Assembly: GCF_045037415.1 (NCBI RefSeq)
Contig: NZ_CP173438.1
Length of the DNA: 64,000 nt
DNA from: Escherichia coli
Lineage (GTDB): Bacteria; Pseudomonadota; Gammaproteobacteria; Enterobacterales; Enterobacteriaceae
Direction: 5' to 3' (one strand)
This document shows positions 60,500-62,857 of this stretch, piece by piece. Position 1 is the first letter of the stretch. Each line of letters begins with the position of its first letter. Under the pieces are notes generated by a model, which worked only from the letters and a program-made list of their open reading frames with translations, searched no databases and was not told the origin of the DNA. A program made the position numbers and the translations under genes.

Positions 60500-60958
60500 T
60501 TAGTACTGATGAGCGGTCGCGTTGTTACCAAAGCCAACCTGAGTGACGTTAACGCTGGAGTTAGATGCAGTCTGGTCAACAGCAGCACCGTTACCGCCAC
60601 CGAACTGTTTAACAGTCATAGTAGAATCTTTACCATTCCACTGATCAAGAGTAGCGCTGTTGCCGAAACCACGCTGAGTCAGATCGATTGAGCTGTCATC
60701 AGAACCTTGGCCAACATCTGCACCATTACCGCCGCCGTGCTGGGTAATGGTCAGATCAGAGTTGCGGGCGTCAGCTTGCAGAGCAAGAGCAGAGTTACCG
60801 CCACCGTACTGGTAAATATTCAGCTCTGAATTCGGGCCGCTGTTATTACCGCCACCACCGTGGTTGCCGCCACCGCCGCCGTACTGAGGAACAACACCTG
60901 CCAGAGCGCTACCGGAGAATACGATTGCTGCAATTGCTGCTACTTTTAAAAGTTTCAT
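60500..60958 (-). CDS. csgA: major curlin subunit
   Basis: 152 aa ORF with signal peptide and five imperfect repeats of the S-x5-Q-x-G-x-G-N-x-A-x3-Q type. Confidence 0.97.
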   Translation of the reverse strand: MKLLKVAAIAAIVFSGSALAGVVPQYGGGGGNHGGGGNNSGPNSELNIYQYGGGNSALALQADARNSDLTITQHGGGNGADVGQGSDDSSIDLTQRGFGNSATLDQWNGKDSTMTVKQFGGGNGAAVDQTASNSSVNVTQVGFGNNATAHQY

Positions 60959-61454: not shown

Positions 61455-62206
61455 GTTGTCACCCTGGACCTGGTCGTACATTTAAGAAATTAAATCATTT
61501 CAACTTGGTTGTTAACGCAACCCGTATTTTGTTAACGCTGCGTTACGATGGAAAGTATGTCTGCGGAAATATTTTTAATAACTCACCCGCGCGTTGTATT
61601 TTTCTTTTTTTGTTCATACCAAAGTATTAAAACCCACGTAAATACGCTGTTATCTACGCAAAAAATATTTTGTTTTCTTTTAAATCTCCGTTTTCCGCTA
61701 TCAAAAATCACCAGACAGTCATTCTTCTTGCCCGTCGCTGATTGCTGCGATATGTCTTGCGCACAAGCCGTGACAAACCTCGTCTTTTTGCAGTAAAAAA
61801 TTGTCCACGGTGGTATGGAGAAAAAACAAGAACGTTTTACATGACGAAAGGACTACAGCGAAATATTTTTTATATGCATTATTAGTAAGTTAGCACCATT
61901 TGTATGATTTTTTAAAATTGTGCAATAAAAACCAAATGTACAACTTTTCTATCATTTCTAAACTTAATAAAACCTTAAGATTAACATTTTAATATAACGA
62001 GTTACATTTAGTTACATGTTTAACACTTGATTTAAGATTTGTAATGGCTAGATTGAAATCAGATGTAATCCATTAGTTTTATATTTTACCCATTTAGGGC
62101 TGATTTATTACTACACACAGCAGTGCAACATCTGTCAGTACTTCTGGTGCTTCTATTTTAGAGGCAGCTGTCAGGTGTGCGAACAATAAAAAAGCGGGGT
62201 TTCATC
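61455..62206. promoter_or_regulatory. csgBAC / csgDEFG divergent intergenic regulatory region
   Basis: 752 bp strongly AT-rich non-coding gap between divergent csgB and csgD; in E. coli it is known to hold the csgB and csgD promoters, many regulator binding sites and the long csgD 5' UTR. Confidence 0.85.

Positions 62207-62857
<651 letters not shown>

Follow-up and report, generated by a model that had tools for sequence, protein, structure and literature searches.

The interval between positions 61455 and 62206 of the E. coli DNA analysed here (a stretch of 64 kb, referred to as the window) separates csgB from csgD, which are divergently transcribed according to both their open reading frames (ORFs) and the RefSeq annotation of E. 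coli SK1144. The start codon of csgB occupies 61454-61452 of the minus strand, with a protein beginning MKNKLLFMMLTILG, and the csgD ATG is at 62207 on the plus strand, so that the ORFs and their translations leave a gap of 752 bp between the two genes. The window is collinear with SK1144 at 99.989% identity, and in that genome, where the interval is identical, csgB and csgD are annotated at exactly both edges with nothing between them.

61455-62206, no strand: the whole csgB-csgD intergenic region, 752 bp, 34.4% G+C

A previous reading of this DNA from its letters alone (the sequence-only reading) had described a non-coding, AT-rich interval of 752 bp between the divergent curli operons. Its edges were found to be exact, and its G+C content was well below the 50.7% of the window. 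Only 0.7% of all 752-bp windows had a lower G+C content, each of them overlapping the csgB-csgD region, and among all 250-bp stretches of the 64-kb window, 61861-62110 had the lowest G+C content (22.8%). The same reading had called the interval the largest non-coding stretch of the window, and this was also the case when the annotation of SK1144 was transferred, the next gaps in size being rluC-rne (572 bp) and mdoG-mdoC (393 bp). The rluC-rne gap, at approximately 20464-21035, presumably houses the long autoregulatory rne leader.

For the comparison between species, a degenerate DNA pattern for the helix-turn-helix of csgD was used to identify 101 loci in species-representative genomes, from which 69 complete csgB-csgD intergenic regions of Enterobacteriaceae were extracted and aligned. 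The region was 725-802 bp long with a G+C content of 32-41% in 68 of the 69 species. Hafnia alvei was the sole outlier in length, with a region of 848 bp and a central spacer of 399 bp. Conserved blocks over the 69 species were found at the end of the csgB leader, at 61505-61632 (csgB promoter), 61890-62060 (MlrA and OmpR sites, -35 and -10 elements) and 62110-62178 (middle of the csgD leader, with SL1), and in the Shine-Dalgarno (SD) region of csgD.

On the csgB side, the following features were identified:

61455-61520, minus strand: csgB leader and ribosome-binding region, with 61455-61474 conserved across the 69 species
61505-61632, minus strand: conserved csgBAC promoter block, mean pairwise identity 0.68 over the 69 species
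61579-61589, minus strand: predicted CsgD box, CGGGTGAGTTA, an exact match to the consensus

A promoter-like TTTCCA-17-CAAAAT on the minus strand would place the start site of csgB near 61519-61520. The CsgD box was matched to CGGGKGAKNKA, which we take to be its consensus; there was one match in the region and 1 in the other 63 kb, and the conservation of its columns was 0.88. A direct repeat of 15 nt, GAAATATTTTT(A/T)ATA, was observed at 61566-61580 and 61860-61874, 294 bp apart. The copy at 61566 abuts the CsgD box, while the copy at 61860 corresponds to -200 to -186 of csgD. As the alignment of species shows no conservation of the second copy, the repeat probably occurs by chance in AT-rich DNA.

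On the csgD side, predicted sites could be placed together with footprints that have been published for this promoter:

62060, plus strand: csgD start site P1, transferred from the K-12 literature
62027-62032 and 62049-62054, plus strand: core promoter of P1 (TTGATT, 16-bp spacer, TAGATT), read from the sequence
62001-62016 (-59 to -44), plus strand: predicted OmpR tandem site, GTTACATTTAGTTACA, an exact match to the motif GTTACA-N4-GTTACA
61914-61947 (-146 to -113), plus strand: predicted MlrA palindrome, AAAATTGTGCA-N12-TGTACAACTTT, with 2 mismatches to what we take to be its consensus
61859-62087 (-201 to +28): published H-NS footprint, coordinates transferred (PMC12388358)
62029-62113 (-31 to +54): published RcsB footprint, coordinates transferred
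61752-61868 (-308 to -192): published RcdA initial footprint, coordinates transferred (PMC3535384)

The position of P1 was obtained by two routes that agreed with each other, namely the length of 148 nt published for the leader (PMC4152358) and a primer end at +67 (PMC12388358). The core promoter has the same sequence as in K-12, and its columns were 0.9-1.0 conserved in the 69 species. It was missed by a generic scan of the region for sigma-70 promoters and terminators, which returned 4 promoter-like sites compared to 4.0 in shuffles. This can be explained by P1 being a weak match, with only 8 of 12 consensus positions.

The OmpR tandem site and the MlrA palindrome each occurred only once in the 64-kb window, with a conservation of 0.83 and 0.72, respectively. 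The spacing between the OmpR site and the -10 element was 45 bp in 68 of the 69 species, and that between the MlrA and OmpR sites was fixed at 65 +/- 1 bp in all 69. Both sites are at the published distances from the csgD start site, and a high-affinity OmpR site, D1, has been described at approximately -51 (PMC13304067). The span of the H-NS footprint coincides with the most AT-rich zone, which had a G+C content of 16-25% in 69/69 species.

A matrix scan, which had been suggested as a check, was informative in part. It found the OmpR site at -59 to -44; the loose scans for IHF, CpxR, CRP, RcsAB, H-NS and sigma-S -10 elements gave densities like, or a few-fold above, those in the rest of the window, and for none of these six were the matches counted as evidence. 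The RcdA box TTGTNNACA had no exact matches in the motif scan. The presence and conservation of OmpR, MlrA and CsgD-box sequences would fit the view in the sequence-only reading of a regulatory region with many factor inputs. The number of real inputs to this 'hub' may be overstated, as deletion of BasR, RcdA, RstA, CpxR, BtsR or MqsR, all six of which are claimed binders, left the expression of csgBA unchanged (PMC12713406).

The csgD mRNA would begin with a long untranslated leader, in which a stem-loop and candidate pairing sites for small RNAs (sRNAs) were identified:

62060-62206, plus strand: csgD 5' untranslated leader, 147 nt (148 nt in K-12)
62128-62178, plus strand: stem-loop SL1, from the minimum-free-energy and centroid folds
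62110-62147, plus strand: sRNA seed block, columns 0.8-1.0 conserved in the 69 species
62110-62124, plus strand: predicted RprA seed, 15-nt run, reached by 0/200 shuffles
62112-62127, plus strand: predicted McaS seed, 16-nt run, 1/200 shuffles
62115-62132, plus strand: predicted GcvB seed, 18-nt run, 0/200 shuffles
62129-62147, plus strand: predicted OmrB seed, 19-nt run, 0/200 shuffles
62134-62147, plus strand: predicted OmrA seed, 14-nt run, 0/200 shuffles
62183-62199, plus strand: linker and Shine-Dalgarno region, with the SD GCGGGG at 62194-62199

The fold of the whole leader was modestly better than that of shuffled sequences (z = -1.8). With RNAalifold on 68 leaders, the apex of SL1 and part of SL2 were recovered and nothing more, therefore the pairs of the single-sequence structure were counted instead. 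In these counts, over 68 distinct leaders, SL1 was paired in most of the 68 species, with compensatory changes. The covarying pairs included 62152/62162 (CG in 31 leaders, UA in 30), 62153/62161 (CG in 31, UA in 22), 62134/62172 (GC in 48, AU in 13) and 62128/62178 (AU in 31, GC in 16).

To assess the sRNAs, the longest contiguous run of pairing with the leader was compared with that of 200 shuffled sRNAs, with the sRNA sequences taken from the annotation of K-12. For RydC, this simple test gave no significant run in the csgD leader. Full-length duplexfold was also applied to the sRNAs and the leader, and its energies were no better than those of shuffled sRNAs; this was uninformative, as the method makes the molecules pair over their whole length, and the contiguous-seed test was used in its place. 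Published pairing sites are located within the 5' half of SL1 for OmrA/B and immediately upstream of this stem-loop for McaS and RprA (PMC4152358), and the positions of our seeds for these sRNAs are consistent with them. Together with the length of the leader and the covariation in SL1, the runs of 14-19 nt argue for a long csgD 5' UTR with several sRNA targets, which had been proposed from the letters alone.

The leader also contains a strong match to an sRNA family in Rfam:

62061-62152, plus strand: match to Rfam RF02752 (ES056 sRNA), 119.7 bits compared to a gathering score of 43, E = 9.8e-23

This match is full-length on the model and covers nt 2-93 of the csgD leader, its 5' two-thirds. 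One reading of such a score is that 62061-62152 is an independent small-RNA gene, ES056, and more than a 5' portion of the leader. The match ends at 62152, in the apical hairpin of SL1 and within its 5' arm, which could reflect a stable 5' fragment formed by processing or premature termination. However, the match begins 1 nt past P1 on the same strand, ES056 has no promoter of its own, the generic terminator scan found no terminator-like site after 62152, and the literature reads the ES056 sequence as the csgD 5' UTR (PMC4152358). A separate gene is therefore improbable, and RF02752 appears to describe a fragment of the csgD leader. In the literature search, no functional characterisation of ES056 was found, the term occurring in one RNA-seq study of E. 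coli sRNAs.

Between the two promoter blocks of the csgB-csgD region lies a stretch in which the sequence has changed a great deal among species:

61633-61889, no strand: central spacer, mean pairwise identity 0.34 compared to 0.68-0.69 in the two promoter blocks
61769-61775 (-291 to -285): conserved GTSACA of an island within the spacer, with a T-run at 61785-61790, from the 69-species alignment

The length of this stretch has been kept. The anchor-to-anchor distance across the spacer was 307-331 bp in 68 of the 69 species, with an SD of 6.2 bp and a CV of 1.9%, without correction for kinship between the species. This SD is smaller than those of two much shorter segments, one of 77 bp in the 5' part of the csgD leader (7.0 bp) and one of 125 bp at the csgB leader (9.4 bp). 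The species also shared a constant G+C profile, again without such a correction, at approximately 48-49% over 61700-61780 and then 16-25% over 61860-62060, and the middle of the spacer was richer in G+C than the zone upstream of csgD in 69/69 species. In many genera, the conserved island reads TTTCTTAAG, with the T-run about 10 bp past GTSACA, and it lies inside the published initial footprint of RcdA (PMC3535384).

It is possible, if somewhat unlikely, that the central ~250 bp are not filler but a spacer whose geometry and composition are under constraint. If this is true, there could be selection on the distance or the DNA architecture between the promoters, for example for an H-NS/IHF bridge or loop, or for insulation, and the GTSACA island would imply a further operator in the spacer. 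The constraint on length and composition is a small lead for research on promoter architecture and not a result.

The sequence-only reading had also expected curved DNA bound by nucleoid proteins. A/T-tracts of at least 4 bases were found at 57 per kb in the region compared to 19 per kb in the window, a count reached by none of 1000 mononucleotide shuffles and by 17 of 1000 dinucleotide shuffles. Helical phasing of AA/TT, at 9-12.5 bp, gave no significant signal in the AT-rich zones, and only the middle with its normal G+C content gave a signal, at 12 bp, to which we attach no meaning. From the sequence, the expectation was therefore borne out only in part; in the literature, intrinsic curvature and the binding of H-NS and IHF are stated for this region (PMC12713406, PMC13304067).

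The same architecture is present in the csgD-csgB (agfD-agfB) region of Salmonella enterica, which has a nearly equal length (760 bp in subsp. diarizonae). The csgB promoter, the zone with the MlrA and OmpR sites and the -10 element, and SL1 are conserved between Salmonella and the window, whereas divergence is seen in the central spacer and over the initial ~50 nt of the leader. The effects of H-NS, RcsB and cAMP-CRP are reported to be opposite between E. coli and Salmonella (PMC12713406, PMC12388358, PMC7409106). For the length of the Salmonella region, 754 bp (PMC13304067) or 582 bp (PMC7409106) can be found in papers, and the different values presumably reflect different end points. A length of 521 bp for Salmonella was not borne out by the 760 bp of subsp. 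diarizonae.

Within E. coli, the region was matched in 5371 of 5426 complete genomes, with at least 95% identity except in 17 records. An identity of at least 99% was found in 628 records, many of them at 100%, with known ST131-type strains among them. The characterised csgD promoter of K-12, to which an alignment had been called for, is in the same position and orientation in MG1655 (b1040-b1041, 754 bp), where the region is 98.5% identical to that in the window. The two alleles differ by 9 substitutions and by two single-base deletions in the window (A7 to A6), and by nothing else (from the alignment, with the window state given first):

61523 C/T, 61611 T/A, 61708 T/G: substitutions on the csgB side
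61811 T/A, 61815 A/G, 61858 G/C, 61893 G/T: further substitutions
61980 A/G (-80), 62183 A/T (+124): substitutions in regulatory parts
~61660 and 62188-62193: contractions from A7 to A6 compared to K-12, the second also in a regulatory part

The core sites were unchanged. The window is identical to K-12 throughout -79 to +123 of csgD P1, which includes the OmpR site, the -35 and -10 elements, the start site, SL1 and the sRNA seed block, and there is also no change in the MlrA palindrome or the CsgD box. None of the 11 differences hits a deeply conserved column of the 69-species alignment. The difference at -80 (61980; A in the window and G in K-12) turns CTTAAGGTT into CTTAAGATT, and A is the majority state at this position (37/69 species). 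On the csgB side (61523, 61611, ~61660 and 61708), the window has the same state as E. albertii and other Escherichia relatives. As the window state is common to other Escherichia species, the K-12 allele is the derived one on this side, and this includes the extra A at ~61660 that contributes to its length of 754 bp. The A at 62183 (+124) is, on the other hand, derived in the lineage of the window, because all Escherichia relatives have T. SL1 and the SD are joined by a single-stranded linker, where conservation within the leader is lowest, and both differences in the leader, 62183 and the A6 run at 62188-62193 (A7 in K-12), fall there.

A conserved ORF or an insertion sequence (IS) fragment occupying most of the interval would have spoken against the sequence-only reading, and both were looked for and not found. 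The longest ORF of the region, encoding 82 aa (61548-61796, plus strand), is present in the window allele, and a longer version of 122 aa exists in one Escherichia relative (L034), so an unannotated protein gene could be suspected here. In K-12, however, the 1-bp indel in the A-run at ~61660 breaks the frame and leaves an ORF of 64 aa, and there is no ORF of at least 40 aa at this position in E. albertii, Salmonella, Citrobacter, Enterobacter, Buttiauxella or Hafnia. The ORF also lies over the stretch of the region with the lowest conservation, has no NCBIfam match and has nothing annotated at its position in RefSeq, which makes a hidden gene extremely unlikely.

It is just as hard to credit that part of the region is a mobile-element remnant or a strain-specific indel that alters curli expression: such events are known in other strains, including S1-CAM-01-A, and among the 5426 complete genomes, 42 have a match over less than 80% of the region and 55 have none, but the window allele is collinear with K-12 over its full length apart from two deletions of 1 bp, has no inverted repeats within the region, and at 752 bp is in the middle of the range of 725-802 bp seen in 68/69 species. 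The check for IS insertions or deletions that had been proposed was therefore negative for the window allele and positive for some other strains. In S1-CAM-01-A (NZ_CP145714.1, L111 4001-5323), most of the region has been replaced, along with csgD and the beginning of csgE, by an IS5-family (ISKpn26-like) element. This strain also has IS903B, another IS, between csgA and csgC.

We consider the region to be, almost certainly, the shared control region of the divergent csgBAC and csgDEFG operons, in an intact natural E. coli allele, and none of the observations spoke against this. The identification as the E. coli csgB-csgD regulatory region, made previously from the letters, is upheld by the identity of 98.5% with K-12 and by sites at the published distances. 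The observations made here are those of position, composition, identity with K-12, the presence and conservation of the sites, covariation in SL1 and complementarity to sRNAs. For factor binding, the use of sigma factors, the start site and the regulatory outcomes, we infer from experiments in K-12 and Salmonella what would apply to this strain. The supporting literature is PMC4152358, PMC12388358, PMC3535384, PMC12713406, PMC13304067 and bioRxiv 10.64898/2026.04.22.719398.

On the csgD side, approximately 200 bp of very AT-rich DNA lies upstream of the weak promoter P1, which would depend on sigma-S and also use sigma-70. The OmpR activator site at about -50 and the MlrA site at about -130 would act from upstream of P1, and sites for IHF, H-NS, CpxR, RstA, RcsB, RcdA and others would overlap near P1. 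With an activator and overlapping factor sites upstream of P1, many signals could converge on the transcription of csgD. After transcription, SL1 and the adjoining upstream part of the leader may pair with the Hfq-dependent sRNAs OmrA/B, McaS, RprA and GcvB, and this pairing would lower csgD translation or the level of its mRNA. On the csgB side, the CsgD protein would turn on the curli subunit genes via the CsgD box, with the ~250-bp spacer of low sequence conservation parting the two promoter blocks.

This region decides the production of curli and, through CsgD, of cellulose. Biofilm formation, persistence in the environment and some interactions with the host are therefore under its control, and it ranks among the most complex bacterial promoters known. 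The region is textbook material and already known, and the allele is an ordinary one, common to many ST131-like strains. The practical value of the analysis is therefore one of confirmation, namely that the control region is intact, with all its core elements unchanged, in an ST131-type strain. Its differences from K-12 are few and outside deeply conserved positions, and the finding itself brings no new biology.

Next to the control region, the csgA gene of the window (60500-60958, minus strand) is 459 nt long, with 152 codons, compared to 456 nt in K-12. The extra codon is located in the N-terminal glycine run.
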